From an uncultured Lachnospiraceae bacterium (GTDB lineage: Bacteria; Bacillota; Clostridia; Lachnospirales; Lachnospiraceae), in NCBI GenBank assembly GCA_902789665.1, contig CADAOY010000007.1, positions 1,057 through 65,056 on the forward strand: DNA of 64,000 bases. Reading direction: 5' to 3'. Position numbers and translations under genes: made by a program. Shown piece by piece: positions 1,746 to 63,412 of the stretch; the stretch's first letter is position 1; every line of letters starts with the position of its first letter. A model generated the notes under the pieces. It searched no databases. It was not told where the DNA came from and saw only the letters and a program-made list of their open reading frames with translations.

Positions 1746-1782
1746 TTTTAGTTTATTGTTTATAACCCGATGGAGGTTTTTT

Positions 1783-3447: not shown

Positions 3448-3467
3448 AAACAAATAGGAGAAAATGT

Positions 3468-3956: not shown

Positions 3957-3968
3957 TTAGGAGGCAAT

Positions 3969-5255: not shown

Positions 5256-5270
5256 TTAAACATATTCATA

Positions 5271-5312
5271 AAACAAACAAATCCGTCGGCTTTGGCCGAC
5301 GGATTGTTGTTT
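5271..5312. terminator. Bidirectional intrinsic terminator between convergent genes
   Basis: AATCCGTCGGC-TTTG-GCCGACGGATT with A-rich 5' and T-rich 3' flanks. Confidence 0.85.
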
Positions 5313-5357
5313 ATAGAGATATGTAATTAAATGTGTGGTTATGATATGTGGCTGTTA

Positions 5358-5807: not shown

Positions 5808-5905
5808 TTTGAACTCCTTGAAATTTTTGTTAAATATTATCTTTTATAATTATAACATAATTGGAATCTATGTTATAATAGTAACGTTGATGTTAAGGAG
5901 AGATA

Positions 5906-7120: not shown

Positions 7121-7124
7121 TATA

Positions 7125-19773: not shown

Positions 19774-21912
19774 ATGGCGGATAATAATAAAGATGATATT
19801 GAAATACTGGATTTCGTTGATAACGAACTGATGGAGATATCACAGGAAGAACTTGATAATATGCAAAGCGCCTTTGATGAATTAGAGGCATCAGCCAATG
19901 CAGATGATGAGTCAAATGATAGTGAAGCAGCAGAGGCTGATTCTGCAGTTGTGCAGCCTAAGTCTGTCGATACCAGATTCTCAGAACCTGTTGATGCAGG
20001 AGATTTGGGAGACCTGGATTTAGGTGATGCTGATTTGGGTGATGTGGATGACACGGAGGCTCAAGAGGCTCCTGCCGAGGAAATTAAGGAATTATCATTA
20101 GATTCATCGGATGTACTTGCAGATGTTAATGACGTGGATGCTATGCTTAAAGATGCACTTGGCGATTTGGGTGACCTTGATGATCTTGAAGATTTTGATG
20201 CTAATGAACTTAGCTCTGACCTTGATGAATCATTATTAAAAGAGCCTGAAGGTGCAGAAGAAAAGGCTGATGATGCGGTTGAGACTGTGGCAGAAGAAGC
20301 AGCTGAAGAAAAGGCAGAAGAGCAGGAAACAGCGGAAGAAAGTGCGAAGGGCGTTGATCTTGATGAAGAAGGTGAACCTATTCTTGATTTAAATGGTGTT
20401 CCTGTGGATGAAGAAGATATATCCGAAATTTCCACCATTCTTAGTAAGCCTGATAATAATGACCTTGTTAATGACAATCTTATGGACATGCTTGAAACTG
20501 CCCAGGAAGAAAAAGAGCAAAGAGAGTATGGAGAGAATCTTCCAGAAATTGGAGAGACAACATATAAGACTGTTGTTGATGAAGAAGAGGCAATTGAAGA
20601 AGGTAATGGCAGCATAGAGATAGTTACTGAAAGTGCTGTAACGGAAGGCGAAGGTTTTGATGAACTTCCTCCTATGGAAGAGGCACAGGCCCAGCCAATA
20701 GAAGAGGTTAAGGAAGAGCCTAAGGAAGAATCTGAAGAACCTAAGAAAGAGAAAAAGAAGAAAGAAAAGAAAGAAAAGAAGCCTAAGAAAGAGCCTGTAG
20801 AAGAAGATTTGGATGATGACTTAGAAGGCAGGAAGAAGATGAGCCTTTGGGAGCGCATCATGGCATTCCTCTTTGAATCTGATGAAGAAGAGGAAACTGA
20901 AGAAGGCGCTGAAGGCGAAACTGCAGAAGGTGCTGAAGGAGGAGAAGGAGCAGGTGCTCCTGCCAAGAAGGGCAAGAAAGAAAAGAAGAAAAAAGAAAAG
21001 AAAGATAAAAAAGGCAAGAAGGGCAAGGAAGACGCCGAAGGCGAAGAAGGCGAGGAATCCCCTAAGAAGAAGTCCAAGAAGGATAAAGGCGGCGACGACG
21101 ACGGCGACGGCGAAGAAGGGGAAGGCAAGAAAAAGAAGAAAAAAGAGAAGAAGCCTAAGAAAGAAAAGAATCTTGAAGAAGAACTTAAGCCAAGACAGAA
21201 GGGTATTAGTAATAAAGCCGTGGCGGCGATTTTGCTGGTTTGCTTATCTATTGCTGCTGTAATAGTTGTGCTTTGTTATTTCGGACCAAGAACACTTGCA
21301 ATTAATAAGGCTAATTATGACTTGTATGATGGTGAGTACCAGGAGGCGGCGCTTACATTATATGGCATGAAATTAAATGAGAATGATACGCTGGTTTATC
21401 GCAAGGCATCACTCCTTAATGCAGTTAATACAAAGCTTGATCAGTATGATAAGTTTATGGCAATTAAGAGAGAGGATAAGGCTCTTGATGCGCTCTTTAA
21501 GACCATTACTTACTGCGATACCAAGAAGGTTGAGGCAGATAATATAGGCGTTGCTGAAGAAGTTGCGATTGTAAGAAATGCAGCGCTTTCGATACTTAGT
21601 GATAAGTATGGCGTGACAGAGGAGCAGGTTGAGGAAATTTGTCAGATGCGTCCTGTATATTATACATCGGCGATTGAGAGTATTATGAGGGGTCTTCCTT
21701 ATGATGCATTTGATCCTCTTGATGAAGAATCTCAGCAAAGAGCATATGATGCTCAGCTTGAAAGTATAACCGGTGGTGAAGAAAGTGGGGAGAGCGAAGA
21801 GGCTGCACCTGAAGAGACCCTGGAAGATCCGCTTGAAGGCGAGCCGGGATTTGCGCCTGCGCCGGATAATGCAGGTGAAGGAAATGGGGAAGGCATGGAA
21901 ATGGTGGAATAA
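19774..21912 (+). CDS. Hypothetical highly acidic/lysine-block single-pass membrane protein
   Basis: 712 aa; about 480 aa D/E/K-rich low complexity, one TM near aa 483-503, helical C-terminal domain, acidic tail; AGGAG RBS. Confidence 0.8.
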   Translation: MADNNKDDIEILDFVDNELMEISQEELDNMQSAFDELEASANADDESNDSEAAEADSAVVQPKSVDTRFSEPVDAGDLGDLDLGDADLGDVDDTEAQEAPAEEIKELSLDSSDVLADVNDVDAMLKDALGDLGDLDDLEDFDANELSSDLDESLLKEPEGAEEKADDAVETVAEEAAEEKAEEQETAEESAKGVDLDEEGEPILDLNGVPVDEEDISEISTILSKPDNNDLVNDNLMDMLETAQEEKEQREYGENLPEIGETTYKTVVDEEEAIEEGNGSIEIVTESAVTEGEGFDELPPMEEAQAQPIEEVKEEPKEESEEPKKEKKKKEKKEKKPKKEPVEEDLDDDLEGRKKMSLWERIMAFLFESDEEEETEEGAEGETAEGAEGGEGAGAPAKKGKKEKKKKEKKDKKGKKGKEDAEGEEGEESPKKKSKKDKGGDDDGDGEEGEGKKKKKKEKKPKKEKNLEEELKPRQKGISNKAVAAILLVCLSIAAVIVVLCYFGPRTLAINKANYDLYDGEYQEAALTLYGMKLNENDTLVYRKASLLNAVNTKLDQYDKFMAIKREDKALDALFKTITYCDTKKVEADNIGVAEEVAIVRNAALSILSDKYGVTEEQVEEICQMRPVYYTSAIESIMRGLPYDAFDPLDEESQQRAYDAQLESITGGEESGESEEAAPEETLEDPLEGEPGFAPAPDNAGEGNGEGMEMVE

Positions 21913-28737: not shown

Positions 28738-31700
28738 TTATTTGTATAATTCAACCAATTTCTGTAAGTGGTCATATCTTGCCTTAGCAGCGTCCTCTGA
28801 TGCAGCGAATAACTTCTCTGCTCTTTCAGGGAATGGCTTGATAAGACGTGTATAACGAGCTTCGTTATTAAGGAACTCCTGATATGTACCATCACCTTCC
28901 TTAGATGTAAGAGTGAATGGATTCTGACCAGCTGCCTTCTTAGCAGGATCAAATGTGAAGAGGTTCCAGTAACCAGCCTTAACAGCTTTCTTCATTTCAT
29001 CCTGGCAGTGGTTCATACCACCCTTAGCGATACCGTGAAGTTCGCAAGGAGCGTAACCAATGATGAGTGAAGGACCGTTGTATGCTTCAGCCTCAGCGAT
29101 AGCCTTAACAGCCTGTGCCGGGTTAGCACCAAGTGCGATCTGAGCAACATATACATAACCGTAGCTCATAGCGATCTCTGCAAGAGACTTCTTGCTGATT
29201 TCCTTACCAGCTGCAGCGAACTGACAAACTTCACCGATATTAGAAGCCTTGGATGCCTGTCCACCAGTATTTGAATACATTTCTGTATCGAATACCATGA
29301 TGTTTACGTTCTCGCCAGAAGCGATTACGTGATCAAGACCACCAAATCCGATATCGTATGCCCATCCGTCACCACCGAAGATCCAAACAGATTTCTTTGA
29401 TAAGTAATCTTTCTTAGCAAGAACTTCTTTAGCAAGAGCATTATCTGATTTCTCAAGTTCTGCAATAAGCTTCTCAGCGTCAGCTGCGTTAGCCTTTGTG
29501 TCATCCTTTGTAGCAAGGAATGCATCAATAGCACCAGCAAGTTCAGCTGAAGCAGAACCCTTGAGTTCTTCTAACTTAGCGATTGCCTGGTCTCTGATAA
29601 CTTTCTGTCCTAAATACATACCGAAGCCGTGCTCAGCATTATCTTCGAACAATGAGTTAGACCATGCAGGACCCTTCTTGGAATCCTTGTTAACAGTATA
29701 TGGTGATGTAGCTGCAGGGCCACCCCAGATAGAAGAGCATCCTGTTGCATTTGAGATATACATATGCTCACCAAATAACTGTGTGATTAATCTAGCATAA
29801 GATGTTTCTGCACAACCTGCACATGATCCTGAGAACTCAAGAAGTGGCTGATTGTACTGTGAATTGATAGGTGTAATACCCTTATCAAGAGCAGGCTTTA
29901 ATTCCTTGCGGCCTACGTTAGCAACTAAGTAATCGAATACTGGCTGCTCAGCTGCCTGTGATTCCTGAGGAACCATCTTAAGAGCTTCATTAGGCTTAGG
30001 ACAAACAGTAACACATTCGCCACATCCCATACAATCAAGTGGTGATACAGTCATTGTATACTTCATTGTTGCATCATTAGCATGCTTTGAATCTGCAAGT
30101 TTGATATTTGAAGGAGCTGCCTTAACTTCTTCATCTGAAAGAATGAATGGACGGATAGTAGCATGTGAACATACGAATGCACAGCTGTTACACTGAGCAC
30201 ATGCTTCAGGGTTCCATTCAGGAACCATAACTGCAGTTCCTCTCTTCTCGTAAGCAGAAGCACCTGTTTCGAACTGACCATCTGCGATATCCTTGAATGC
30301 AGATACTGGTAAGCTGTAACCATCCATTAAGCCGATAGGATCAAGAAGCTTGTTAACCATATCAACTGTAGCAGGTCTTCCTTCTCTCTTGATTTCTTTC
30401 TTTTCTTCTGTAGCATTAGCCCAATCAGCAGGAACTTCTACTTTGTGAATAGCATCTACACCGGCATCAATTGCCTTGTAGTTCATTTCAACAACAGCGT
30501 CACCCTTCTTGGAGTATGACTTCTTAGCTGCCTGCTTCATGTAATCAACAGCTTCCTCGATTGGCATAACGTTAGCAAGTTTGAAGAATGCTGACTGTAA
30601 GATAGTATTTGTTCTCTTACCCATACCAATTTCGATAGCCTTGTCAATAGCGTTAATTGTATATAACTGAATGTTGTTCTTAGCGATATACTGCTTAGCT
30701 TCAGCTGGCATATGCTGATTAAGTTCTTCATCAGACCACTGGCAGTTAATCATGAAGATTCCGCCTGGCTTAACATCCTGAACCATCTTGTAGCCTTTAA
30801 CAACATAAGATGGGTTATGGCATGCTACGAAGTCAGCCTGATTGATGTAGTATGGGCTCTTGATTGGCTTGTCACCAAAACGAAGATGGGAGATAGTGAT
30901 ACCACCTGTCTTCTTAGAGTCATACTGGAAGTATGCCTGGATATATTTGTCTGTGTGGTCACCAATAATCTTTGTAGAGTTCTTGTTAGCACCAACAGTA
31001 CCGTCACCACCCAAGCCCCAGAACTTGCACTCTACTGTACCCTTAGCGGATGTAATAGGAGCTGGCTTAACTTCTGGTAAGCTTAAGTTTGTAACGTCAT
31101 CAACGATACCGATTGTAAATCTCTTCTTAGGAGCATCTTTCTCAAGTTCTGTATAAATAGCGAAGATAGATGAAGGACATGTATCCTTGCTACCTAAACC
31201 GTAACGACCTGCTGAAACGAGGATGTCATTAAGTCCTGCTTCACGAAGAGTAGTAGCGATATCAAGGTATAATGGCTCACCAAGTGAACCTGGCTCTTTA
31301 GTTCTGTCTAATACAGCAATCTTCTTAACTGTCTTAGGAAGAACTTTAAGGAATGCGTTAGAAACCCATGGACGATATAATCTTACTTTAATAAGACCAA
31401 CCTTCTGACCTGCAGCTGTTAAGTAATCAATTACTTCTTCAGCTACGTCACATACAGAACCCATGGCAACGATTACTCTGTCTGCATCAGCAGCGCCATA
31501 GTAATTGAAGAGGTCATAATCTGTACCGAGCTTCTCGTTAATCTTCTTCATGTATTTCTCTACAACAGCTGGAAGAGCATCGTAAACTGAGTTACAAGCT
31601 TCTCTGTGCTGGAAGAATACGTCATCATTTTCATGTGAGCCTCTCATTGCTGGATGCTCTGGATTAAGTGCATGCTGTCTGAATGCTTCAACTGCATCCA

Positions 31701-32289
31701 TGTTGCACATTTCTTTAAGGTCTTCATAGTCCCATAATTCGATCTTCTGGATCTCATGAGATGTACGGAAACCATCGAAGAAGTTAAGGAATGGAACCTT
31801 TCCTTCAATAGCTGCAAGGTGAGCAACAGGGCTTAAGTCCATAACTTCCTGTGGATTGGACTCAGCGAGCATAGCGAAACCTGTCTGACGGCAAGCGTAT
31901 ACGTCACTGTGATCACCAAAGATATTAAGTGACTGTGTAGCAACGCATCTTGCGGATACATCGAATACACAAGGTAATTGTTCAGCAGCAATCTTGTACA
32001 TGTTAGGGATCATAAGAAGAAGACCCTGAGATGCTGTGAATGTTGTTGTGATAGCACCAGCTGCAAGAGAACCATGAACGGTACCAGCTGCGCCAGCTTC
32101 TGATTGCATTTCGGTTACCTTAACTGTGTTACCGAAAATGTTTTTTCTACCTTCTGCAGACCACTGGTCAACATAGTCGGCCATAGGGCTTGAAGGTGTG
32201 ATAGGATAGATACCTGCAACTTCTGTGAAAGCATAAGCTACATGAGCTGCGGCGGTATTACCATCCATTGACTGTTTGATTCTAGCCAT
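28738..32289 (-). CDS. nifJ: Pyruvate:ferredoxin (flavodoxin) oxidoreductase, homodimeric type
   Basis: MDGNTAAA, YPITPSS, QSEAGAAG, GLGGDGTVGANK, two CxxCxxC-CP, FSGSCAGCAET, GGDGWAYDIG; start ATG 32289 behind AAAGGAGG. Confidence 0.97.
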   Translation of the reverse strand: MARIKQSMDGNTAAAHVAYAFTEVAGIYPITPSSPMADYVDQWSAEGRKNIFGNTVKVTEMQSEAGAAGTVHGSLAAGAITTTFTASQGLLLMIPNMYKIAAEQLPCVFDVSARCVATQSLNIFGDHSDVYACRQTGFAMLAESNPQEVMDLSPVAHLAAIEGKVPFLNFFDGFRTSHEIQKIELWDYEDLKEMCNMDAVEAFRQHALNPEHPAMRGSHENDDVFFQHREACNSVYDALPAVVEKYMKKINEKLGTDYDLFNYYGAADADRVIVAMGSVCDVAEEVIDYLTAAGQKVGLIKVRLYRPWVSNAFLKVLPKTVKKIAVLDRTKEPGSLGEPLYLDIATTLREAGLNDILVSAGRYGLGSKDTCPSSIFAIYTELEKDAPKKRFTIGIVDDVTNLSLPEVKPAPITSAKGTVECKFWGLGGDGTVGANKNSTKIIGDHTDKYIQAYFQYDSKKTGGITISHLRFGDKPIKSPYYINQADFVACHNPSYVVKGYKMVQDVKPGGIFMINCQWSDEELNQHMPAEAKQYIAKNNIQLYTINAIDKAIEIGMGKRTNTILQSAFFKLANVMPIEEAVDYMKQAAKKSYSKKGDAVVEMNYKAIDAGVDAIHKVEVPADWANATEEKKEIKREGRPATVDMVNKLLDPIGLMDGYSLPVSAFKDIADGQFETGASAYEKRGTAVMVPEWNPEACAQCNSCAFVCSHATIRPFILSDEEVKAAPSNIKLADSKHANDATMKYTMTVSPLDCMGCGECVTVCPKPNEALKMVPQESQAAEQPVFDYLVANVGRKELKPALDKGITPINSQYNQPLLEFSGSCAGCAETSYARLITQLFGEHMYISNATGCSSIWGGPAATSPYTVNKDSKKGPAWSNSLFEDNAEHGFGMYLGQKVIRDQAIAKLEELKGSASAELAGAIDAFLATKDDTKANAADAEKLIAELEKSDNALAKEVLAKKDYLSKKSVWIFGGDGWAYDIGFGGLDHVIASGENVNIMVFDTEMYSNTGGQASKASNIGEVCQFAAAGKEISKKSLAEIAMSYGYVYVAQIALGANPAQAVKAIAEAEAYNGPSLIIGYAPCELHGIAKGGMNHCQDEMKKAVKAGYWNLFTFDPAKKAAGQNPFTLTSKEGDGTYQEFLNNEARYTRLIKPFPERAEKLFAASEDAAKARYDHLQKLVELYK

Positions 32290-32344
32290 ATTAGTAACAT
32301 CCTCCTTTAATTTTGGGCGCAAAAAAAGCGCCTGACTATTTAAA

Positions 32345-32373
32345 ATTATAATATGAAAGGGGGTTTTTGTAAA
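32345..32373 (-). promoter_or_regulatory. Sigma-A promoter of PFOR
   Basis: Minus strand TTTACA-17 bp-TATAAT; the -35 lies in the loop of a 9-bp inverted repeat (GGGGGTTTT 32359-32367 / AAAACCCCC 32378-32386). Confidence 0.7.
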
Positions 32374-32407
32374 CACCAAAACCCCCATAGTTTCCTTAAT
32401 TATATGT

Positions 32408-32437
32408 AAAATATAACCCACTAATTTAGTGGGTTAT
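32408..32437 (-). terminator. Intrinsic terminator of the hydrogenase-regulatory operon
   Basis: ATAACCCACTA-ATT-TAGTGGGTTAT directly after the PHP stop; TTTT on the minus strand. Confidence 0.75.
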
Positions 32438-37454: not shown

Positions 37455-39269
37455 ATGTATCGTTCACATGTATTAGTATGCGGTGGTACAGGTTGTACTT
37501 CCTCAGGAAGTCAACAGATCATCGATGCATTCGAAAGCGAGATCAAGAAGAATGACCTTGCTGAAGAAGTTGCAGTAGTACGTACAGGTTGCCACGGTTT
37601 ATGTGCACTTGGTCCAATCGTACTTATTTATCCGGAAGGATCTTTCTACTCAATGGTTAAGCCGGAAGACGTTGCTGAAATCGTTTCAGAGCATCTTTTA
37701 AAGGGTAGAGTAGTTACAAGGCTTTTATATCAGGAAACAGTTAAGGAAGAAGAAGTTGTTCCTCTTGCTGAAACAGGTTTCTATAAGAAGCAGATGAGAG
37801 TTGCTCTTCGTAACTGTGGTGTTATTAACCCAGAAAACATTGAAGAGTATATCGCAGTTGATGGTTATCAGGCACTTGGTAAAGTTTTAACTGAGATGAC
37901 ACCTGAAGATGTAATCCAGACACTTCTTGATGCAGGTCTTCGTGGCCGTGGTGGTGCTGGTTTCCCTACAGGTCAGAAGTGGAAACTTGCCAGAACTTTG
38001 GTTCCTGATGCAGATCAGAAATATGTATGTTGTAATGCCGACGAAGGTGACCCGGGTGCATTCATGGATCGTTCAGTACTTGAAGGTGATCCACATGTTG
38101 TACTTGAAGCTATGGCAATTGCAGGTTATGCAATTGGTGCTAACCAGGGTTATATCTACGTAAGAGCTGAGTATCCTATCGCTATTGAAAGATTACAGAT
38201 CGCAATCGGACAGGCCAGAGAATACGGCTTACTTGGTAAGGATATCTTCGGAACAGGCTTTGATTTTGATATCGACTTAAGATTCGGTGCTGGTGCATTC
38301 GTTTGTGGTGAGGAAACAGCCCTTATGACTTCTATCGAAGGTAACAGAGGTGAGCCTCGTCCACGTCCACCATTCCCAGCTGTTAAAGGTTTATTTGCTA
38401 AGCCAACAGTACTTAACAACGTTGAGACATATGCTAACATTCCACGTATCATTTTAAATGGTGCTGAGTGGTTCGCATCAATGGGTACAGAGAAGAGCAA
38501 GGGTACAAAGGTATTCGCTCTTGGTGGAAAGATTAACAACACAGGTCTTGTAGAAGTTCCTATGGGTACAACACTTCGTGAAGTTATTGAGGATATCGGT
38601 GGTGGTATTCCTAATGGCAAGAAGTTCAAGGCTGCTCAGACAGGTGGTCCTTCAGGTGGATGTATCCCAGCAGAGCACTTCGATATTCCTATTGATTATG
38701 ATAACCTTATTGGTATCGGTTCCATGATGGGTTCTGGTGGACTTATCGTTATGGATGAAGACAACTGTATGGTTGATATCGCTAAGTTCTTCTTAGAGTT
38801 CACTGTAGATGAGTCTTGTGGTAAGTGTACACCTTGCCGTATCGGTACTAAGAGATTATATGAAATGCTTGATAAGATTACTAAGGGTCAGGGTACCTTA
38901 GAAGACTTGGACAAGATGGAAGAGTTATGCTACTACATCAAGGCTAACTCACTTTGTGGTCTTGGTCAGACAGCTCCTAACCCTGTTCTTTCAACACTTC
39001 GTTACTTCAAAGATGAGTATGTTGCTCACGTAGTTGACAAGAAGTGTCCAGCAGGCGTATGTAAAGATCTTCTTTCATTCTCTATTGATAAAGAGAAGTG
39101 TGTTGGCTGTGGTATGTGTGCTAAACAGTGTCCTGCTTCAGCTATCTCAAAGACAGATTATATCGCTCCTGGTAAGAAACTTCCTGCAATGGCAATTGAC
39201 ACATCCAAGTGTGTTAAGTGTGGTGCATGTATGTCAACATGTAAGTTCAAAGCTATTTCTAAAGGGTAA
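37455..39269 (+). CDS. NuoF-like NADH/FMN subunit (HndC/HydB)
   Basis: GRGGAGFPTG, ADEGDPGAFMDR, GAGAFVCGEET, GGPSGG, CGKCTPCRIG, C-terminal 2x[4Fe-4S]. Confidence 0.95.
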   Translation: MYRSHVLVCGGTGCTSSGSQQIIDAFESEIKKNDLAEEVAVVRTGCHGLCALGPIVLIYPEGSFYSMVKPEDVAEIVSEHLLKGRVVTRLLYQETVKEEEVVPLAETGFYKKQMRVALRNCGVINPENIEEYIAVDGYQALGKVLTEMTPEDVIQTLLDAGLRGRGGAGFPTGQKWKLARTLVPDADQKYVCCNADEGDPGAFMDRSVLEGDPHVVLEAMAIAGYAIGANQGYIYVRAEYPIAIERLQIAIGQAREYGLLGKDIFGTGFDFDIDLRFGAGAFVCGEETALMTSIEGNRGEPRPRPPFPAVKGLFAKPTVLNNVETYANIPRIILNGAEWFASMGTEKSKGTKVFALGGKINNTGLVEVPMGTTLREVIEDIGGGIPNGKKFKAAQTGGPSGGCIPAEHFDIPIDYDNLIGIGSMMGSGGLIVMDEDNCMVDIAKFFLEFTVDESCGKCTPCRIGTKRLYEMLDKITKGQGTLEDLDKMEELCYYIKANSLCGLGQTAPNPVLSTLRYFKDEYVAHVVDKKCPAGVCKDLLSFSIDKEKCVGCGMCAKQCPASAISKTDYIAPGKKLPAMAIDTSKCVKCGACMSTCKFKAISKG

Positions 39270-39337
39270 CAAAAGTAAAAGATTTTACAGGGAAGCCTGT
39301 TAAAAGGCTTAAGGATATTATTTAGGAGGTAAATTTA

Positions 39338-41095
39338 ATGGAAACCGTTAAAGTTAAAATAAATGGTGTTGAAGTAGATGCACCTAAAGGCTCTTCCATA
39401 TTAGCAGCAGCAAAGCTTGCCGGAATCGATATTCCTACTTTATGTTACTTAAAGGAAATCAATGAAATCGGCGCTTGTCGTATCTGTATGGTAGAAGCTA
39501 ATGAAGGCAGAGGCCCTAGACTGGTAGCTGCTTGTGTATATCCTGTTTCAGAGGGTATGGAAGTAAGCACAAATTCACCAAAGGTATTGGAAAGCAGAAA
39601 GAAAACACTTCAGCTTATCTTATCTGACCATGATAAGAAATGTTTATCATGTGTACGTAGTGGTAAGTGTGAACTTCAGAAGCTTTGCAAAGACTATGGC
39701 GTAGATGATGAGAATAAGTACGAAGGCGTTGTAAACGAATTCGAACTTGATGAATCTGCAGCACATATGGTAAGAGATAACAACAAGTGTATCAATTGCC
39801 GTCGTTGTATCGCAGTTTGTGAGAAGAATCAGGGTATTGGCGTTATCGGCGCTAATAACAGAGGTTTCATCACAGAGATTTCTTCTCCATTTGGTATGGG
39901 ACTTGCTGAGACAGCCTGCGTATGCTGTGGTCAGTGTATCGCTGCTTGTCCTACAGGTGCTATTTATGAGAAGTCTGATATTGATAAGATCTTAGCAGCT
40001 ATTGCAGATCCTGAGAAGCATGTTGTTGTTCAGACAGCTCCTGCTGTTAGAGCAGCACTTGGTGAAGCATTTGGTCTTCCAATCGGAACAGGTGTTGAAG
40101 GCAAGATGGTTGCAGCTCTTAGAAGAATCGGATTCGAGAAAGTATTCGATACAGATTTTGCAGCTGACGTAACAATTATGGAAGAAGCTCATGAGCTCTT
40201 AGACAGAGTTAAAAATGGTGGTGTACTTCCAATGATTACATCTTGTTCACCAGGATGGATTAAATATTGTGAGCATTACTATCCAGATCAGCTTGAGCAC
40301 TTATCATCATGTAAGTCACCTCAGCAGATGTTTGGTGCAATTCTTAAAACATATTACGCACAGAAGATGGGCTGGGATCCTAAGTCAATCGTATCTGTCA
40401 GCGTAATGCCATGTACAGCTAAGAAGTTTGAAATTGGTCGTGAAGATCAGAGCGCTGCTGGTGTTCCAGATCTTGATTACACAATGACAACAAGAGAACT
40501 TGCAAGATTAATTGAGAGATGTTCAATTAACTTCCTTGCTCTTCCAGATGAGACATTTGATGATCCTATGGGTGAGAGTACAGGTGCTGCAGTTATCTTC
40601 GGTGCAACCGGTGGTGTTATGGAAGCAGCTCTCAGAACAGCTGTATGGAAACTTACAGGCGAGACAAATGACAGCCCAATCGAATTCAAGGAAGTTCGTG
40701 GTATGGAAGGCATCAAGGAAGCTACATACAAAGTTAACGATCTTGAAGTTAAGGTTGCTATCGCTTCAGGTCTTGCTAATGCCAAGGTTATCATGGATAA
40801 GATCAGAGCCGGCGAAGCTGATTACGTATTCGTTGAAGTTATGGCTTGCCCAGGCGGCTGTATCAACGGTGGTGGACAGCCACAGGTACCTGCACACATC
40901 CGCAATTTTGTTGACTATCGTTCACTTCGTGCAGGTGCATTATACAAATATGATGAGACTATGCCTGTTCGTAAGTCACATGAGAACAAATCTGTACTTA
41001 AGTTATATGAAGAGTTCTTCGGTGAACCAAACAGCCATAAAGCACATGAAGTTTTACATACAACCTATGTAAAGAGAAAAATTCATGAGATTTAA
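39338..41095 (+). CDS. [FeFe]-hydrogenase catalytic subunit (HndD/HydA, group A3 type)
   Basis: N-terminal [2Fe-2S], His-ligated and 2x[4Fe-4S] motifs; P1 TSCSPGW, P2 MPCTAKKFE, P3 EVMACPGGCINGGG. Confidence 0.95.
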   Translation: METVKVKINGVEVDAPKGSSILAAAKLAGIDIPTLCYLKEINEIGACRICMVEANEGRGPRLVAACVYPVSEGMEVSTNSPKVLESRKKTLQLILSDHDKKCLSCVRSGKCELQKLCKDYGVDDENKYEGVVNEFELDESAAHMVRDNNKCINCRRCIAVCEKNQGIGVIGANNRGFITEISSPFGMGLAETACVCCGQCIAACPTGAIYEKSDIDKILAAIADPEKHVVVQTAPAVRAALGEAFGLPIGTGVEGKMVAALRRIGFEKVFDTDFAADVTIMEEAHELLDRVKNGGVLPMITSCSPGWIKYCEHYYPDQLEHLSSCKSPQQMFGAILKTYYAQKMGWDPKSIVSVSVMPCTAKKFEIGREDQSAAGVPDLDYTMTTRELARLIERCSINFLALPDETFDDPMGESTGAAVIFGATGGVMEAALRTAVWKLTGETNDSPIEFKEVRGMEGIKEATYKVNDLEVKVAIASGLANAKVIMDKIRAGEADYVFVEVMACPGGCINGGGQPQVPAHIRNFVDYRSLRAGALYKYDETMPVRKSHENKSVLKLYEEFFGEPNSHKAHEVLHTTYVKRKIHEI

Positions 41096-55108: not shown

Positions 55109-55137
55109 AATTGGGGTATGATAAGGGGGATGCAAAT

Positions 55138-55917
55138 ATGAAATGTGTTATTTTAGCCGGTGGTTACGGCACCCGTATTTCAGAAGAATCATCTTTTAAA
55201 CCAAAGCCAATGGTGGAGATTGGTGAGCAGCCGATTCTGTGGCATATCATGAAGGGTTATTCCACCTATGGCATCAAGGAATTCATAATCTGCGCAGGAT
55301 ATAAGCAGCATGTAATCAAGGAATGGTTTGCTGATTATTTCCTTCACACATCTGATATTACCTTTGATTTTGAACAGGATAACAAAATCATCGTCCACGA
55401 CAAACATACCGAAAAATGGAAGGTTACAGTTATCGATACAGGACTTAATACCATGACGGGCGGACGTGTTAAGAGAATTCAGAAATTTGTTGATGGAGAG
55501 CCATTTTTATTAACCTATGGCGACGCTGTATCGGATGTAAATATAAATGATTTAATTGCCTTTCATAAATCACATGGCAAGTGCATGACATTAACATCCG
55601 TCAGCCTTGCTCAGCAAAAGGGCGTTCTTAATATTGATTCTGATAATACCATTACATCATTCAGGGAAAAAGATGATGAGGACGGCGCTGTAGTAAACGG
55701 CGGCTTTATGGTATGCAGTCCATCAATATTTAATTATCTTCATGATGATACAACAATCCTGGAGCAGGAACCTATGAGAGCACTTGCTGCAAGCGGTGAA
55801 CTTAAAAGTTTCTATCATGACGGTTTCTGGCAGTGTATGGATACAAAAAGAGAAAAAGACAGACTTGAATTATTATGGGCATCAGGTGAAGCTCCTTGGA
55901 AAACCTGGAATGATTAA
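55138..55917 (+). CDS. rfbF: Glucose-1-phosphate cytidylyltransferase
   Basis: ILAGGYGTRISEE..KPMVEIG..PILWHIM, TGGR, TYGD, GFWQCMDT; start ATG 55138. Confidence 0.9.
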   Translation: MKCVILAGGYGTRISEESSFKPKPMVEIGEQPILWHIMKGYSTYGIKEFIICAGYKQHVIKEWFADYFLHTSDITFDFEQDNKIIVHDKHTEKWKVTVIDTGLNTMTGGRVKRIQKFVDGEPFLLTYGDAVSDVNINDLIAFHKSHGKCMTLTSVSLAQQKGVLNIDSDNTITSFREKDDEDGAVVNGGFMVCSPSIFNYLHDDTTILEQEPMRALAASGELKSFYHDGFWQCMDTKREKDRLELLWASGEAPWKTWND

Positions 55918-56113: not shown

Positions 56114-56710
56114 ATGAATTATTTTGATAATATCTATTTAATGGATTCTGCCTCATCATCAGCTTTTCGAATTTCCCTTAATCTTATTAATGCCATAACT
56201 CCTGCCGGACCGGTAGCAGTTGGCGTCATAGGTTCATATAACAAAATTTCAATTAACAAAAAATCATTTGATAAAATAAGTAATTTTACTGACCTTTATA
56301 TTAAGCAGAATATTATCACCACGGGTAATTATGATAAGGAGTCTGCGGGGCGGATTTGGCACAAGTTTCTTAAAATATTAAAGAATGATTATGATCTAAA
56401 AAAAGGTGATTACAGCATAGGATTTGTGCTTTATACCAAGAGATTTAAGTGTTCATATAAATGTGGCAGGGATGTGCTTAAGATTAATTTACATGGAATG
56501 ATGTTATATTCTTCTTCGCTTAAAAATAAGATTGATAAGAAAAGCATAAGAAAACTTTGCTTTATAAAGGATAAAAAAGTATTGGAAAAATACTCAAGGG
56601 AACTGATTGAAAGATGCAGAATAAGAGGAGAAAAAGATGATATTGGAATCATCTTCATACGGCCAAAGATACGCAGATGTGGAATTAATTGGCCAGGGTG
56701 GCTTAGGTAA
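56114..56710 (+). CDS. Hypothetical protein, probably a degenerate PP2C/PPM-fold pseudophosphatase
   Basis: C-terminus MMLYSSSLKNKIDKKSIRKL...ELIERCRIRGEKDDIGIIFI mirrors PPM LLLCSDGL...LVE.A...GG.DNITVILV; DG motifs missing. Confidence 0.5.
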   Translation: MNYFDNIYLMDSASSSAFRISLNLINAITPAGPVAVGVIGSYNKISINKKSFDKISNFTDLYIKQNIITTGNYDKESAGRIWHKFLKILKNDYDLKKGDYSIGFVLYTKRFKCSYKCGRDVLKINLHGMMLYSSSLKNKIDKKSIRKLCFIKDKKVLEKYSRELIERCRIRGEKDDIGIIFIRPKIRRCGINWPGWLR

Positions 56711-57620
56711 AGTATATAAAGCCTATGATACGAATCTTGGAAGGGATGTGGTAATAAAGGAAATTAATGGTCATGAGACAGAAGAGGCAGACATGCTTCT
56801 TAAAATCAATAATGACCGTATTCCAAAAATATATGATTTATTTTTCACTGATGACAAAACTTATATAGTAATGGAATATATTGAAGGCGACAGTTTAAGG
56901 GAATATCTCTTAAAGAAAAATGTGGATTATAAGGAAAAAAGAGATATAATCTGTCAGATTGCAGAGATACTTTCTTATCTGCATACACTGGAGAATCCTT
57001 TTATTTACGGGGACTTAAAGCCTGAAAATGTAATAATTGGAAATGGAAAGGTAAAACTCGTTGATTTTGGCAGTAGTAAAAAAATGTACATCAGGTATGA
57101 TAATCTGTATACAACAGAAATATTTTCCGCGCCGGAACAGTATGAGGGAGAGGCTTATTTTCAAAGCGATATTTATGCTTTTGGTAAGTTAATGATTTAC
57201 ATTTTAACCAGGGTGTCTCTTGATAAAAAGGGTGATGTAAGTTTTAAGGATTTACGAAATCTGGATATCGACTTTAGGGATAAACTAATAATTATCAATT
57301 GTCTAAAATGGGATTATTCCAAAAGATATGTAAGTGCGGTCAGTCTGAAAAAGGCACTTAAGCATGAATTTATAAGTGTGGAGAATGTATTGAGGCTGGT
57401 TTACATAATTCTTATTGCATATGGAATTATTCTTTGTGGTCTGTCGCTTATTTTAAGTGTGGTCATGGGTGATGAAAATTTTATAACAAAATATAATTTT
57501 TTCAGGTTTGGAAGTATATGTTTTTTGTCGGCAGTCCTTATGGATATTAATTATAATACGGACTTTGACGACAGGCATATTTATTATGAACTTGATGTCA
57601 AACTGTCTTCGGATTTTTAG
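56637..57620 (+). CDS. Hanks-type Ser/Thr protein kinase with two C-terminal TM segments, no PASTA
   Basis: GQGGLGKVY, VVIKE, YGDLKPEN, DFG, SAPEQ, SDIYAFG; GAGGAG RBS before ATG 56637. Confidence 0.9.
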   Translation: MILESSSYGQRYADVELIGQGGLGKVYKAYDTNLGRDVVIKEINGHETEEADMLLKINNDRIPKIYDLFFTDDKTYIVMEYIEGDSLREYLLKKNVDYKEKRDIICQIAEILSYLHTLENPFIYGDLKPENVIIGNGKVKLVDFGSSKKMYIRYDNLYTTEIFSAPEQYEGEAYFQSDIYAFGKLMIYILTRVSLDKKGDVSFKDLRNLDIDFRDKLIIINCLKWDYSKRYVSAVSLKKALKHEFISVENVLRLVYIILIAYGIILCGLSLILSVVMGDENFITKYNFFRFGSICFLSAVLMDINYNTDFDDRHIYYELDVKLSSDF

Positions 57621-57723
57621 ATATATTAATTTTATATATCTAGAATATTTTCTCTTAATATACTACAATATATAAGGTGGGCTTATACCAAAAACTTAAT
57701 TTATTTCCTTGAAAGGAGACATT

Positions 57724-58785
57724 ATGGGAAGAGAAAATACCAAGGTAATTCATATAGGCAATAAGGTGATTGGTGGCGGAAATCCGATTATGATTCAGTC
57801 TATGACCAATACAAGAACTGAGGACGTGGAAGCAACTGTTAAGCAGATACAGGATCTGACTTTTGCAGGCTGTGATATTGTCAGATGTACAGTTCCAACT
57901 CTGGAAGCTGCCAAGGCGCTTTCGGAGATAAAGAAGAAGGTTAGTATTCCTATAGTTGCAGATATTCATTTTGATTATAAAATGGCCATCGCTGCCATGG
58001 AAAATGGCGCAGATAAAATCAGAATCAATCCTGGTAACATTGGTTCAAGAGAGAATCTTGCCAAGGTTGTGGCTGTTGCCAAGGAAAGAAATATTCCAAT
58101 CAGAGTAGGCGTTAACAGTGGTTCTTTGGAGAAAGACATTATTGCAAAATATGGCAGGGTAACTGCAGAAGGCCTTGTGGAAAGTGCTCTTGATAAAGTG
58201 CATATGATTGAAGAAGAAGGCTATGATAATATGGTTATTTCCATTAAGTCTTCAGATGTTTTAATGTGTATCAAGGCTCATGAAATACTCGATAAGAAGA
58301 CCAATTATCCTCTTCATGTTGGTATTACAGAATCAGGTACACTTTTCTCAGGTAATATTAAGTCATCCATCGGTCTTGGTGTGATTCTATATGAGGGAAT
58401 TGGTGATACCATAAGAGTATCATTAACAGGTGATCCGGTAGAAGAGATTAAGACAGCCAAATTATTACTTAAGACTCTTGATTTAAGAAAAGGCGGAATT
58501 GAAGTAGTAAGCTGCCCAACCTGTGGAAGAACAAAGATTGATTTGATTTCACTTGCCAATAAGGTTGAAAAGATGGCCCAGAATTATGACCTTGATATTA
58601 AGGTTGCAGTAATGGGCTGCGCTGTTAATGGTCCTGGAGAAGCTAAAGAAGCTGATATAGGAATTGCAGGCGGCATTAATGAAGGTCTCCTTATTAAGAA
58701 AGGACAGGTAGTTAAGAAGGTTCCTGAAAGTGAACTTTTAGCTACACTTAAATATGAGCTGGACAATTGGAACAGTGAAGAATAA
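57724..58785 (+). CDS. ispG: HMB-PP synthase (4-hydroxy-3-methylbut-2-enyl diphosphate synthase)
   Basis: IQSMTNT, VADIHF, RINPGN, RVGVNSGSL, PLHVGITE, CPTCGR, VMGCAVNGPGE; start ATG 57724. Confidence 0.97.
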   Translation: MGRENTKVIHIGNKVIGGGNPIMIQSMTNTRTEDVEATVKQIQDLTFAGCDIVRCTVPTLEAAKALSEIKKKVSIPIVADIHFDYKMAIAAMENGADKIRINPGNIGSRENLAKVVAVAKERNIPIRVGVNSGSLEKDIIAKYGRVTAEGLVESALDKVHMIEEEGYDNMVISIKSSDVLMCIKAHEILDKKTNYPLHVGITESGTLFSGNIKSSIGLGVILYEGIGDTIRVSLTGDPVEEIKTAKLLLKTLDLRKGGIEVVSCPTCGRTKIDLISLANKVEKMAQNYDLDIKVAVMGCAVNGPGEAKEADIGIAGGINEGLLIKKGQVVKKVPESELLATLKYELDNWNSEE

Positions 58786-58804: not shown

Positions 58805-61800
58805 ATGAAGCAGTTTTTGGAAGTATTTGACAAAATAGATATAGATGACAGTGCTCTTCGTAATGCGCTTGAAAGCAGCTATGTAGATAATATTGTTGCA
58901 TCAGATGATAAGACATTAATTAATATTGATTTCTACTGTGACAAGCTGATTCAGAAAAATGACATTAAGAAATTAGAAAGACAGATTAAGAATTATTATT
59001 TTAACAGAACTAATCTTACTGTAAAACTTGTTGTTAAATATGATCTTAATGGACAGTATACTCCTGAGAATTTTTATAAGGCTTATAAGGACAGCATTGA
59101 AGAAGAAGCAGAGAATTACAGCATGGTTTTGTATGTTATCTTAAATAATGCTGATATTTCTTTTGATGACAATATAGTAAAAGTTGTCATTGAAGATACT
59201 CCATTATACAGGGAAAAGCAGGAAGAAGTCCGTTCTTTCTTTGAGATGATATTTAATTCCAGATGTAATTTTAAATGTATTATCGATATTCAGTATAAGG
59301 ATAAGAATACAAATATATACAGAGAAATAAATGACCATGAAACAAAAATGATGGTTAAGGATATCTGTGAGCGTCTTTCTGATGATTATGTTGAAGATGA
59401 TAATACTGTAATTAAGGCTGGAAGAAAGAGTTCCCTTATTATTACTGATGATGAGCCGATTAAAGCCGAAGGTGATGGCTCAGGCAAAAAAGAAGATAAT
59501 GGGGATAAAAAAGAAAACAAGGAAGCTGAACCTGGCGCTAAAGCCCCTAAGAAAGAGGCTGCAACTGGCGGCTCTGGCAATAAAAAAGATAAGGGTAAAT
59601 TCCAGAAGAAAGATAAGTTCGATGGGGCTTATCGTAAGAAAAGACATTTCAAGGTTGATGATGACAGCGATCTTTTATTCGGCAGGGCTTTTCACGGAGA
59701 TGAGATTACACTTAAGGAAGCCTATACCGGATATTCCGAAGTAATTGTTAAGGGTAAGATTATCAAAATTGACAATGAGAAGGAAATCAGGGAAGGTACA
59801 TATCTTTATATATTTGTTATATATGATTTAACTGAATCCATTGGTGTTAAGGTATTCTGTGATTCTTCGCAGATTGAGGAATTAAGGGAGACTCTGGCAG
59901 TTGGTAAGTATGTTAAGTTAAAAGGCTCTGTTACTGAGGACAGTTTCAGTGGTGATGTAATTATTGATAAAGTAAGAGGTATCTATGAAATCCAGAATTT
60001 CATGAAGGTTGCCCAGAGAATGGACTATCATCCAAATAAAAGGGTTGAACTTCATCTTCATACCAACTTTAGTGAAATGGATGCGGTTACTCCTGTAGAT
60101 AAACTGATTCAAAGAGCAGTGGACTGGGGCATGAATGCAATGGCTATTACAGATCATGCTGTAGTTCAGTCTTTCCCTATTGCATATCATTATCTTCAGG
60201 ACAAGGTTAAAACTGATTTTAAGCTTATATATGGCGTTGAAGCCTATATGGTTGATGATTCTCTGGTACCGGTTAAGGGAGCTACTGAGGAACTAATAAA
60301 TGATGATTTTGTAGTTATTAATATTAAGACTACAGGTCTTTCCAATGTGGTAAATAAGATTGTTGAAATTAATGCCATTAAATTTGTTGATGGAGAAGTT
60401 AAGGAATCATTCCATAAATATGTTAATCCATTAGAGCCGGTTTCCTATAAGGTTGAAGACGAGATAGGAATAAGTAATGCCAAACTTGCCATGGAAGACA
60501 GTATCTATGAAGTACTGCCTGAATTCCTGGCATTTGTGGAAGGTTATATAATTGTCGGACATAACCTGGATTTTGCCTTAGGATTTATTAAGAAAGCATG
60601 CGAATATCATAATGTAGATTTTAATCCTGTTGGAGTTGATACTATGGAACTTGCCAGAAACTTTATGGATATCAGCAGGTTCAAACTTGAAACAGTATGT
60701 AAGCATGTAAAGATAAAGGTAGATAGTGAAACTTCAGCCAGTCTTTGTAAGGCAAATGGTGATTTATATTTATATTTTGCGAAGGAATTAACTCAGAAAA
60801 ATCTTATAAAGTTAACTGAAATCAATGATTTTGCAAGAAATAACAAGGACAGACTTGTTAAGTATAAGCCTTATCACGTAATTATTCTTGCCAAGAATGA
60901 TATAGGCAGACTTAATTTATATCGTATTGTTTCCACCTCACATGTTGAATATTTAAGACATGCAGGTAAGAAGAATATTCCGGTTATTCCAAGAAGTTAT
61001 ATTAATGAACACAGAGAAGGACTTATCGTAGGAAGCGCCTGCTCTGAAGGTGAATTATTTAAGGCGATACTTGAGAATAAGGAAGATGACATTATTGCAA
61101 GTATAGTTAATTTCTATGACTATCTTGAGATTCAGCCGCTTGGCAATAATGAATATTTATTAAGAGAAGGTCTTTATGGCGTAGAATCAAGAGATGATTT
61201 GATTGATCTTAATAAGAAAATTGTATCTTTGGGCGAACAGTTTGACAAACCGGTATGTGCTACCTGTGACGTTCATTTTATGGACCCTGAAGATGAAATA
61301 TACAGAAGAATTATTCAGTTTAAAGAAGGCTTTGCTGATGCGGATAAGCAGCCTCCTATATATTTCAGAACGACTGATGAAATGCTGAAGGAGTTTGGTT
61401 ATTTAGGACCAAAGAAGGCAGAAGAGGTTGTAATTACCAATACTAATTTAATTGCGGATATGGTTGAGGTAATATCACCTGTTCATCCCGACAAGTGTCC
61501 ACCTGAGATTCCTCACAGTGATGAGATGCTTCGTAAAATCTGTTACGATAAGGCACATGCAATGTATGGAGATCCGCTGCCTGAAGTTGTGCAGTCAAGA
61601 CTTGATACAGAGCTAAATTCAATTATTAATGCAGGATATGCAAACCTTTATATTATTGCTCAGAAACTGGTATGGAAGTCAAATGAAGACGGATACCTGG
61701 TTGGTTCGAGAGGTTCGGTTGGTTCTTCCCTTGTTGCTACAATGGCAGGTATATCGGAAGTTAATCCGCTGCCTCCTCATTATTACTGTACCAAATGCCA

Positions 61801-63412
61801 GTATTCTGATTTTACATCACCGGAAGTTGAGAAATATTCACAAAGTTCGGGTGTAGATATGCCGGACAGAATATGTCCTAAGTGCGGTGAGAAACTTACC
61901 AAGGATGGATTTAATATTCCATTTGCTACATTCCTTGGATTTAAAGCTAATAAGGAACCTGATATCGACCTTAACTTCTCCGGTGAATATCAGGCTAAGG
62001 CTCACAGATATACGGAGGTTATTTTTGGACCGGGTCAGACTTTCAGAGCCGGTACTTATGGTACTGTGGCAGAGAAGACAGCCTATGCCTATGTAGATGA
62101 TTATTACGTTAAACATGGTGAGAATAAAAGACGTTTTGAGAAAGAGAGAATATCTCAGGGCTGTACAAATATTAAGAGATCATCCGGTCAGCATCCGGGT
62201 GGTATCATAGTTCTTCCTCTTGGAAGGGAAATTAATGAATTTACACCGATTCAGAAAGCGGAAGATGATGAGGGTAAAGTAATTATTACAACCCATTTTG
62301 AATATCATGCCATTGATAATAACCTGCTTAAGCTTGACATACTTGGACACGATGATCCGAGTATGCTTAAGATGCTTCAGGATTTATCAGGCATAAATCC
62401 TAATGATATTCCGATTGATGACAGAAAGATATTATCTTTATTCCAGACACCTGATGTTCTTGGAATTACTTCAGAACAGATTAACGGATGTAAGACAGGA
62501 ACAAGAGGCATACCTGAATTTGGTACAGACCTTGCGATTGACATGCTTGTTGAAACCAATCCACAGTCAGTTGCGGACCTTGTTAGAATATCAGGTTTGT
62601 CCCATGGTACTGATGTATGGCGTGGTAATGCTCAGACTCTTATCCAGGAAGGAAAATGTATTCTTTCATCAGCTATCTGTTGTCGTGATGATATTATGGT
62701 TTATCTTATCCATAAAGGCATTGAACCGGAAACAGCATTCAACATTATGGAGAATGTTAGAAAAGGTAAGGTTGCAAAGGGTAAGTGCGATAAGTGGGAA
62801 GAGTGGAAGCAGATTATGATTGATCATGGTATACCTGACTGGTATATCTGGTCCTGCGAAAAGATTCAGTACATGTTCCCTAAGGCACATGCTGCAGCTT
62901 ATGTTACACTGGCCTGCAGAATCGCATATTTTAAAATTTATCATCCCCTTGTTTATTATGCAGCATTCTTCTCAATAAGAGCCAAGGGCTTTAACTATGA
63001 GAAGATTGTAAGAGGTAAAGACAGATTCTACTCAGAACTTAAGAGAGTAAGAGAACAGTCTGCCAATGGTAAGCTTAATAATACTGACAAGGATTTCCTT
63101 AATACAGCTAATCTGGTAGAGGAAATGTTTGCAAGAGGCTTTGATTTTATGCCTATTGATATGTCCAGAGTTAATGCTTCCAAGTTCCAGATTATAGATG
63201 GAAAACTTATGCCAAGTCTTGATACCATTGATGGTGTTGGCGGAATCGCGGATAAAATCGTTAACGCATCCAAAGGTGTTACTTTCTTCTCAAGAGAAGA
63301 TTTCAAGAATAAAACCGGATGCCCTGAAACCATATCCCTTAAACTTAAGGAACTGGGCATACTGGGTAATATACCGGATCAAAGTCAGCTGACTTTATTT
63401 GATTTTATGTAA
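58805..63412 (+). CDS. polC: DNA polymerase III PolC-type; integral 3'-5' exonuclease apparently inactive
   Basis: OB fold; PHP (HLHT, TDH, GVEA, YH, SAC, CDVH); Zn finger; GSRGSVGSS; EPDIDLNF; KLDILGHDDP; YMFPKAHAAAY. Exo motifs degenerate. Confidence 0.97.
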   Translation: MKQFLEVFDKIDIDDSALRNALESSYVDNIVASDDKTLINIDFYCDKLIQKNDIKKLERQIKNYYFNRTNLTVKLVVKYDLNGQYTPENFYKAYKDSIEEEAENYSMVLYVILNNADISFDDNIVKVVIEDTPLYREKQEEVRSFFEMIFNSRCNFKCIIDIQYKDKNTNIYREINDHETKMMVKDICERLSDDYVEDDNTVIKAGRKSSLIITDDEPIKAEGDGSGKKEDNGDKKENKEAEPGAKAPKKEAATGGSGNKKDKGKFQKKDKFDGAYRKKRHFKVDDDSDLLFGRAFHGDEITLKEAYTGYSEVIVKGKIIKIDNEKEIREGTYLYIFVIYDLTESIGVKVFCDSSQIEELRETLAVGKYVKLKGSVTEDSFSGDVIIDKVRGIYEIQNFMKVAQRMDYHPNKRVELHLHTNFSEMDAVTPVDKLIQRAVDWGMNAMAITDHAVVQSFPIAYHYLQDKVKTDFKLIYGVEAYMVDDSLVPVKGATEELINDDFVVINIKTTGLSNVVNKIVEINAIKFVDGEVKESFHKYVNPLEPVSYKVEDEIGISNAKLAMEDSIYEVLPEFLAFVEGYIIVGHNLDFALGFIKKACEYHNVDFNPVGVDTMELARNFMDISRFKLETVCKHVKIKVDSETSASLCKANGDLYLYFAKELTQKNLIKLTEINDFARNNKDRLVKYKPYHVIILAKNDIGRLNLYRIVSTSHVEYLRHAGKKNIPVIPRSYINEHREGLIVGSACSEGELFKAILENKEDDIIASIVNFYDYLEIQPLGNNEYLLREGLYGVESRDDLIDLNKKIVSLGEQFDKPVCATCDVHFMDPEDEIYRRIIQFKEGFADADKQPPIYFRTTDEMLKEFGYLGPKKAEEVVITNTNLIADMVEVISPVHPDKCPPEIPHSDEMLRKICYDKAHAMYGDPLPEVVQSRLDTELNSIINAGYANLYIIAQKLVWKSNEDGYLVGSRGSVGSSLVATMAGISEVNPLPPHYYCTKCQYSDFTSPEVEKYSQSSGVDMPDRICPKCGEKLTKDGFNIPFATFLGFKANKEPDIDLNFSGEYQAKAHRYTEVIFGPGQTFRAGTYGTVAEKTAYAYVDDYYVKHGENKRRFEKERISQGCTNIKRSSGQHPGGIIVLPLGREINEFTPIQKAEDDEGKVIITTHFEYHAIDNNLLKLDILGHDDPSMLKMLQDLSGINPNDIPIDDRKILSLFQTPDVLGITSEQINGCKTGTRGIPEFGTDLAIDMLVETNPQSVADLVRISGLSHGTDVWRGNAQTLIQEGKCILSSAICCRDDIMVYLIHKGIEPETAFNIMENVRKGKVAKGKCDKWEEWKQIMIDHGIPDWYIWSCEKIQYMFPKAHAAAYVTLACRIAYFKIYHPLVYYAAFFSIRAKGFNYEKIVRGKDRFYSELKRVREQSANGKLNNTDKDFLNTANLVEEMFARGFDFMPIDMSRVNASKFQIIDGKLMPSLDTIDGVGGIADKIVNASKGVTFFSREDFKNKTGCPETISLKLKELGILGNIPDQSQLTLFDFM

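Follow-up and report, generated by a model that had tools for sequence, protein, structure and literature searches.

A replicative PolC from an uncultured Lachnospiraceae lineage retains a DnaQ-like exonuclease domain, predicted to be inactive, next to an intact PHP metal site

In textbooks, PolC exemplifies a replicase that carries its own DEDDh editor; it is also a target of antibiotics, ibezapolstat being an example. We have analysed the polC gene carried by a stretch of 64,000 nucleotides from an uncultured Lachnospiraceae bacterium (GenBank assembly GCA_902789665.1, contig CADAOY010000007.1, positions 1,057 to 65,056; hereafter the window). The encoded protein keeps the polymerase and PHP sites of its relatives, together with an exonuclease (Exo) domain that is predicted to be folded and has lost all of its catalytic residues.

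Canonical PolC, as known from B. subtilis, S. aureus and E. faecium (9QPC, 9QRN, 3F2B), has the same domain order, the same polymerase Asp triad and the same PHP and Exo fold as the window protein. In the structure of the E. faecium enzyme, the Exo domain interrupts the PHP domain between its strands 3 and 4 and binds three nucleotides of single strand. Some 6% of PolCs, clostridial cases included, have no Exo insert (Timinskas et al. 2014, PMC3919608). These Exo-less enzymes of Clostridia and Negativicutes resemble the window protein by the loss of the DEDDh site, the intact nonet of PHP ligands and the recurrence on the tree, but their insert is gone (11-61 residues being left), whereas the window protein keeps a 211-residue domain that is predicted to be folded and under purifying selection. 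They occur in organisms having both PolC and DnaE1; by analogy with other Clostridia, the host of the window is assumed to have a dnaE1 gene too. M. tuberculosis DnaE1, which proofreads with its PHP domain (PMC5636811), and T. thermophilus Pol III alpha share with the window protein a full nine-residue PHP site and the lack of a functional DEDDh site in the same polypeptide. Both belong to the DnaE type and have no DnaQ fold inserted, and their PHP exonuclease has been demonstrated biochemically, while that of the window protein is predicted. Inactivated DnaQ-like domains are found in many Pol I orthologues and in PolB2/G2 (PMC12926913). These are also non-catalytic DnaQ folds lying inside a polymerase, but the enzymes concerned serve in repair or translesion synthesis, and the loss is tied to error-prone synthesis, whereas PolC is an essential replicase.

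Clostridial PolCs from which the Exo insert has disappeared altogether were described in 2014 (PMC3919608), so that a PolC without DEDDh proofreading is no novelty as such. The DnaQ proofreader of Pol III alpha subunits has been described as not the one that becomes inactivated (PMC12926913), and in a 2026 survey of about 3000 complete genomes, Clostridia mostly had three 'active' proofreaders. A replicative PolC with a retained but inactivated Exo domain is covered neither by Timinskas et al. (2014) nor by the 2026 survey and seems to be unreported. Judging from the sequences described below, this state would sit between canonical and Exo-less PolC, and it recurs in uncultured lineages.

The window polC encodes a protein of PolC-type architecture, with an N-terminal domain, an OB domain, a PHP domain split by the exonuclease insert, a Pol3 core and fingers. 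Pfam matches above the cut-offs were obtained for DNA_pol3_a_NI, PHP (residues 415-771, split), RNase_T (509-639), DNA_pol3_alpha and DNA_pol3_finger, while the OB match fell slightly under its cut-off (24.6 vs 27 bits). The three polymerase aspartates (D1053, D1055 and D1178) and all nine PHP ligands (Table 1) are present, each in a column that is invariant in 117 canonical homologues. The C-terminal QLTLFDF, aligned with QLSLFDF in relatives, is a predicted beta-clamp motif. The closest PolC in the GTDB species genomes was that of Lachnospiraceae bacterium UBA4338 (99% identity), the next best being only 48% identical. We used ispG both as a marker of the usual polC locus and as a control gene for the rate of the lineage. 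IspG lies directly upstream of polC at 77 of 80 related loci, and the window shares this neighbourhood with its canonical Lachnospiraceae relatives; therefore the gene is in its usual place and no obvious stray paralogue. The window polC is the housekeeping polC of the uncultured lineage UBA4338.

The initial annotation, made from the letters alone, had proposed that the proofreading site is dead at all three Exo motifs in a protein whose frame, polymerase aspartates and PHP ligands are intact. Translation of positions 60299-60790 indeed yielded the strings on which this was based (VVINIKTTGLS, GHNLDFALGF and DSETSASLC). In a MAFFT alignment, the five DEDDh columns were occupied by N506, K508, A591, T643 and L647, compared with D-E-D-H-D in 117 of the 120 nearest homologues. 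When the protein was compared with PDB chains using phmmer, N506 and K508 aligned with two alanines of 9qpc, an E. faecium PolC that had deliberately been made exonuclease-inactive (D431A/E433A). With N-K-A-T-L in place of DEDHD, the window protein is a natural counterpart of this laboratory enzyme; its Asn and Lys in ExoI stand at the two positions that are commonly changed to Ala to abolish the activity. The register of ExoIII is slightly uncertain, as the catalytic columns hold T643 and L647 according to MAFFT and a hidden Markov model (HMM), whereas phmmer puts T or S in the first and either a gap or C648 in the second; in no register was an H or a D found there. Lacking the pentad, the domain is a homologue of the DEDDh family and no functional member of it, with a site predicted to be unable to bind its two metals.

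A sequencing error or a pseudogene was ruled out by the intact 1535-residue frame, by the presence of the same dead residues in other sequences and by an omega far below 1 (see below). The window protein belongs to a 90% cluster of 21 distinct sequences from NCBI, ENA, JGI and Logan assemblies, on contigs of up to 455 kb, and residues 506, 508, 591, 643 and 647 were invariant across the 12 full-length variants compared. The initial annotation was thus right in holding that the loss is no artefact. D589, in the HNLDF sequence, was considered as a displaced ExoII ligand and rejected because it is polymorphic (D/N/G) within the lineage.

It is extremely improbable that the domain is still a nuclease working with a rewired set of ligands. 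Such a set might be sought among the acidic and histidine residues that are fixed in the lineage and found in none of the canonical PolCs (E496, D501, H537, E544, E553, E564 and E661), but none of them is at a motif position. E642 does occupy the first His position of the ExoIII HH pair; against this, K508 brings a positive charge to a metal-ligand position, the aspartate beside ExoII varies, as just said, and the other dead lineages use differing non-acidic replacements (S/T, K/H, R/Q, N/V) with no common pattern.

The RNase_T match to the Exo domain scored 53.4 bits (cut-off 24). An AlphaFold2 model of residues 400-905 had a mean pLDDT of 91.4 and a pTM of 0.88, the Exo part being as confident as the rest. 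With Foldseek, this model gave TM scores of 0.87-0.88 to E. faecium PolC (9qpc and 9qrn) and TMt values of 0.75-0.83 to epsilon and DnaQ domains, including 2p1j and 8h18. Both the RNase_T match and the model thus predict a DnaQ/RNase T fold for the Exo domain. The distance from E479 to H691 is 211 residues, compared with a canonical median of 215, so that the protein does not fall into the Exo-less class. Compared with UBA4338, the window polC differed over the Exo domain by 23 synonymous and 6 non-synonymous substitutions (omega 0.058); the corresponding omega was 0.036 for the Pol core and 0.013 for the C-terminal part of PHP (PHP-C), the PHP domain having the lowest values of the whole gene (0.013-0.035). 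The ratio of Exo to Pol non-synonymous rates (dN) was 2.6, canonical Lachnospiraceae PolC pairs (n = 9) spanning 1.3-9.8. The predicted fold and the substitution pattern indicate that the Exo domain is a pseudo-exonuclease, folded and under purifying selection, with all five DEDDh residues lost.

The domain was only 25-36% identical to canonical ones, whereas 45-55% would be expected from canonical pairs with equal Pol-core identity; summarised as single values, this is 33% against about 51%. These values indicate that it went through a past phase of unusually fast divergence. Two other PolCs with a dead Exo domain, L023 and L031 (Table 1), shared 0.92 identity in Pol and 0.59 in Exo, against 0.80 (0.66-0.91) in canonical pairs, and by this measure the pair shows a similar partial relaxation.

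An exhaustive search of 1.84 billion representative proteins yielded about 8,700 PolC representatives (E <= 1e-10), and the best 150 of these were classified. They comprised 101 canonical PolCs, 24 without the insert (the Glu and His ligands of PHP being 11-61 residues apart) and 19 that keep an insert of 142-291 residues without DEDDh, the insert being unrecognisable to the Exo HMM in some. An insert in this size range that went undetected by the canonical Exo HMM was found in P0188, P0196, P0198, P0203, P0233, P0244, P0271 and P0279, and all eight have a perfect PHP nonet; these may be Exo domains that have degenerated to an extreme degree, or else sequences that have replaced them.

At least five other Lachnospiraceae lineages keep the Exo insert without DEDDh. 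P0002, which like the P0071 cluster is among the 120 nearest proteins, has N, V, E, S and R in the DEDDh columns. The P0071 cluster (P0139-P0143), a lineage known only from Logan, has D, I/V, N, H and D, and with only two of the five residues lost (the ExoI Glu and the ExoII Asp) it may represent an early stage of inactivation. We also screened the 80 nearest GTDB species for the state of the Exo domain, and three more cases of this kind turned up, L023, L031 and L070 (Table 1). The dead state has outlasted a speciation, L023 and L031 being sisters.

In neighbour-joining (NJ) trees built from the PHP and Pol columns, the dead-Exo lineages took at least three separate positions: the window protein with P0071, P0002 near L023 and L031, and L070 beside the canonical L047. 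A single dead-Exo clade formed by the window protein, P0002 and P0071 was not supported, as NJ bootstrap support was just 30% for all three and 81% for the window protein with P0071; with more taxa, P0002 shifted next to L023/L031, with L070 beside L047. The window protein and P0071 are both on long branches, and therefore their grouping may reflect long-branch attraction. In the tree of the best 150 proteins, dead or absent Exo domains were interleaved with canonical ones where the PHP site is intact, and almost none occurred where it is degenerate. In this comparison, the dead Exo domain is one stage of a trend that recurs in Clostridia and leads from a canonical Exo domain through a dead one and an insert no longer recognisable to outright deletion; the trend is almost confined to the background of a perfect PHP site. 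The loss is not peculiar to one lineage, since several independent Lachnospiraceae and clostridial lineages have a dead Exo domain.

Three proteins met in these searches deserve mention. P0144 (59% identity, with canonical ExoII and ExoIII) was considered as a close relative or second copy of the window protein and discarded: it is a fragment limited mainly to PHP-C and Pol, a region over which identities as high as 63% are found even with canonical PolCs. P0002 and the window protein (residues 626-637, positions 60680-60715) share a derived E(T/S)VCKH in place of the canonical DTVAKAL, as well as the change of the ExoI Asp to Asn. Their Pol cores are not sisters (identity 0.64, P0002 being at 0.82 to the canonical L012), and the likeness is either convergence or an old shared state. 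P0243, a PolC-like protein of 1009 residues, has N-N-N at the polymerase triad and SHEHEHCDH at the PHP site; its sequence suggests that it may be a catalytically dead PolC paralogue.

We then turned to the PHP site, where the nine-residue pattern H-H-D-H-E-H-C/H-D-H is complete in the window protein and would predict an exonuclease activity. C746 corresponds to C669 of C. thermocellum PolC, and the PHP-ligand mutant C669Y of that enzyme is an approximately 30-fold mutator. The perfect nonet HHDHEHCDH was found in 40 of the 43 Exo-dead or Exo-less PolCs and in 61 of the 101 canonical ones (Fisher p = 4.8e-5, kinship ignored). Read from the sequences, this pattern fits a rule according to which PolC keeps at least one editor, PHP or DEDDh.

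The initial annotation had offered four possibilities, namely a move of proofreading to the PHP domain, a DnaQ-like protein acting in trans, a shift of bulk replication to DnaE and a natural mutator. The first of these fits best with the counts of perfect nonets and with the mutator effect of C669Y; the natural mutator is disfavoured. We consider it probable that proofreading rests on the PHP site and that the dead Exo domain is retained as a scaffold. The PHP metal site would edit PolC's own errors in the 3'-5' direction, by the mechanism known from M. tuberculosis DnaE1. The dead DnaQ fold would persist because it is built into the PHP domain and may be needed for PHP geometry, and it may also persist by still handling the single-stranded 3' end.

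Several points weigh against PHP proofreading with a scaffold-like Exo domain. To our knowledge, PHP exonuclease activity has been shown biochemically for no PolC. The evidence from C. thermocellum is genetic, and its PolC also carries an Exo domain. Clostridial PolCs mostly have intact PHP sites anyway, and the association between PHP and Exo states was computed without phylogenetic correction. The estimate of selection on the Exo domain comes from just 29 substitutions. The search for dnaE and dnaQ genes covered the 64-kb window and 10 kb downstream, which leaves room for proofreading in trans. Finally, at matched IspG divergence, the identity of the Pol core to relatives was 0.60, while 0.72-0.76 was expected (lower 2.5% bound 0.65-0.69), and that of PHP was 0.59-0.60, with 0.65-0.69 expected. 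This divergence of the whole PolC in the window lineage could mean a changed or reduced role of the enzyme.

According to the literature, DnaE-type polymerases are present in all bacteria, and in Clostridia PolC is accompanied by a DnaE1 whose PHP site is perfect. Such a DnaE1, present in the same cell and with its own PHP site intact, could take over bulk or high-fidelity synthesis, or edit PolC errors in trans, an idea raised by Timinskas et al. (PMC3919608) because Exo-less PolCs occur only in genomes having PolC and a perfect-PHP DnaE1. In our data, the support for it is the acceleration of the whole PolC just described, and this comes from the window lineage alone, P0002, L023, L031 and L070 being free of acceleration in the Pol domain. 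We regard this explanation as unlikely, as the Pol core is under strong present-day selection, with intact catalytic aspartates and clamp motif, and a PolC freed of its fidelity duty should have lost the PHP site too, contrary to what the nonet counts indicate. In addition, no dnaE was seen among the large open reading frames (ORFs) or six-frame ORFs of the window, nor in the 10 kb downstream (locus L081).

We think it still less probable, indeed quite improbable, that the proofreading of PolC is carried out in trans by a separately encoded DnaQ-like exonuclease akin to an epsilon subunit. Bacteria commonly have stand-alone DnaQ homologues, more than three per proteome on average (PMC12926913), but nothing specific to the window genome speaks for their involvement. 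Apart from the PolC domain itself, no DnaQ-like ORF was found in the window, and none within 10 kb downstream. We know of no epsilon-PolC complex. Proofreading in trans would also leave unexplained the strict retention of the PHP nonet in Exo-dead and Exo-less PolCs.

The loss of all five DEDDh residues and the long branch on which the PolC of the window lineage lies might also be those of a natural mutator living without replicative proofreading. With IspG as the one control gene, no acceleration was observed in the window lineage or in three other dead-Exo lineages. The mean identity of the window IspG to 65 outgroup species was 0.743, compared with 0.773 +/- 0.026 for the members of the outgroup, and its median identity to all relatives was 0.749, compared with 0.777. 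For L070, the identity to the outgroup was 0.749, compared with 0.738 for its canonical sister L047; for L023 and L031 it was 0.780, compared with 0.775-0.781 for canonical sisters. The GC content of dead-Exo lineages equalled that of canonical sisters as well. IspG (a single control gene) and GC content like those of sisters argue against a long-standing strong mutator phenotype, and the dead state has been stable over the 12 full-length variants and through the speciation of L023 and L031. A mutator lineage, one of the options of the initial annotation, is therefore very improbable.

Within the reading that proofreading is done by PHP, the dead DnaQ fold might have been exapted as a module without catalysis that binds the 3' end or senses a mismatch, captures the frayed primer and hands its terminus to the adjacent PHP site, which we consider distinctly unlikely, more so than the DnaE1 explanation. 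If it were true, proofreading would be a two-domain process in dead-Exo PolCs, and the series from canonical to dead, degenerate and deleted would record an essential replicase switching between two unrelated proofreading chemistries.

Previous work had established that some clostridial PolCs have no Exo insert and that clostridial PolC has a conserved PHP site. PolCs in which the DEDDh site is dead and the PHP site strictly conserved, without genomic signs of hypermutation, provide natural test cases for PHP proofreading, free of DEDDh interference. Our survey also corrects a recent generalisation from complete genomes, in that the DnaQ proofreader of Pol III alpha has been inactivated repeatedly in uncultured Lachnospiraceae and related Clostridia. 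The value of these observations is that of a test case and a correction; they do not reveal a new kind of system.

Table 1. Features of the polC locus (window positions) and polC genes of three other lineages with a dead Exo domain (positions in their own loci)
Feature	Position	Strand	Remarks
Nucleotidyl-transferase gene	55111-55917		between rseP and ispG
198-aa ORF	56114-56710		no Pfam match; between rseP and ispG
Ser/Thr protein kinase gene	56637-57620		between rseP and ispG
ispG (gcpE)	57709..58785	+	Pfam GcpE, E = 6.8e-150; directly upstream of polC
polC, PolC-type DNA polymerase III alpha subunit	58805..63412	+	1535 aa, frame intact; from ORF list with translation, Pfam
PHP domain, N-terminal part (aa 406-495)	60020..60289	+	ligands H417, H419, D426, H451, E479
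DnaQ-like (DEDDh-family) exonuclease domain inserted in PHP (aa 496-690)	60290..60874	+	fold kept, catalysis lost (predicted)
ExoI, N506-I507-K508 for D-x-E	60320..60328	+	N506 at 60320-60322, K508 at 60326-60328
ExoII, A591 for catalytic Asp	60575..60577	+	D589 (60569-60571) close by, polymorphic D/N/G
ExoIII, E642-T-S-A-S-L-C648 for H-H-R-A-x-D-D	60728..60748	+	catalytic His and Asp both lost
PHP domain, C-terminal part (aa 691-900)	60875..61504	+	ligands H691, C746, D822, H824
Polymerase core, fingers and C-terminal region (aa 901-1535)	61505..63409	+	D1053 and D1055 (61961-61969), D1178 (62336-62338)
C-terminal clamp-binding-type motif QLTLF (aa 1528-1532)	63386..63400	+	aligns with QLSLF of canonical PolCs
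L023 polC (Lachnospiraceae SIG327)	3001-7446		ExoI/ExoII S, T, E; Exo kept, DEDDh lost, ispG upstream
L031 polC (Lachnospiraceae SGB_2390)	3001-7434		ExoI/ExoII D, K, H; Exo kept, DEDDh lost, ispG upstream
L070 polC (Lachnospiraceae Lapin-023 bin68)	3001-7443		ExoI/ExoII R, E, Q; Exo kept, DEDDh lost, ispG upstream

Upstream of polC, the gene order is pyrH, frr, uppS, cdsA, dxr, rseP, an insertion of three genes (Table 1), and ispG. From other Firmicutes, rimP-nusA-infB would be expected downstream. The region following polC past the end of the window (L081, 14759-24608) encodes an 1100-residue surface protein with SpaA and thioester domains, a sortase-like protein, a small protein with a CdiA_C toxin domain, and zinc-ribbon/DUF6273 proteins. 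Within PolC itself, residues 201-290 (positions 59405-59674) form a low-complexity linker rich in Lys, Glu and Gly between the N-terminal domain and OB; no other part of the protein is as polymorphic in this lineage, with 8 of 90 sites variable, clustered at residues 224-228.

Elsewhere in the window, we noted a gene for a dynamin-family GTPase of 970 residues (25411-28323), a pyruvate:ferredoxin oxidoreductase gene on the minus strand (28738-32421), and two ORFs without a Pfam family at E <= 1e-5 (1711-3447, 578 residues, and 19774-21912, 712 residues). At 37455-41095, a NuoF-like subunit is encoded beside the large subunit of an [FeFe]-hydrogenase, a pair of the bifurcating-hydrogenase type.

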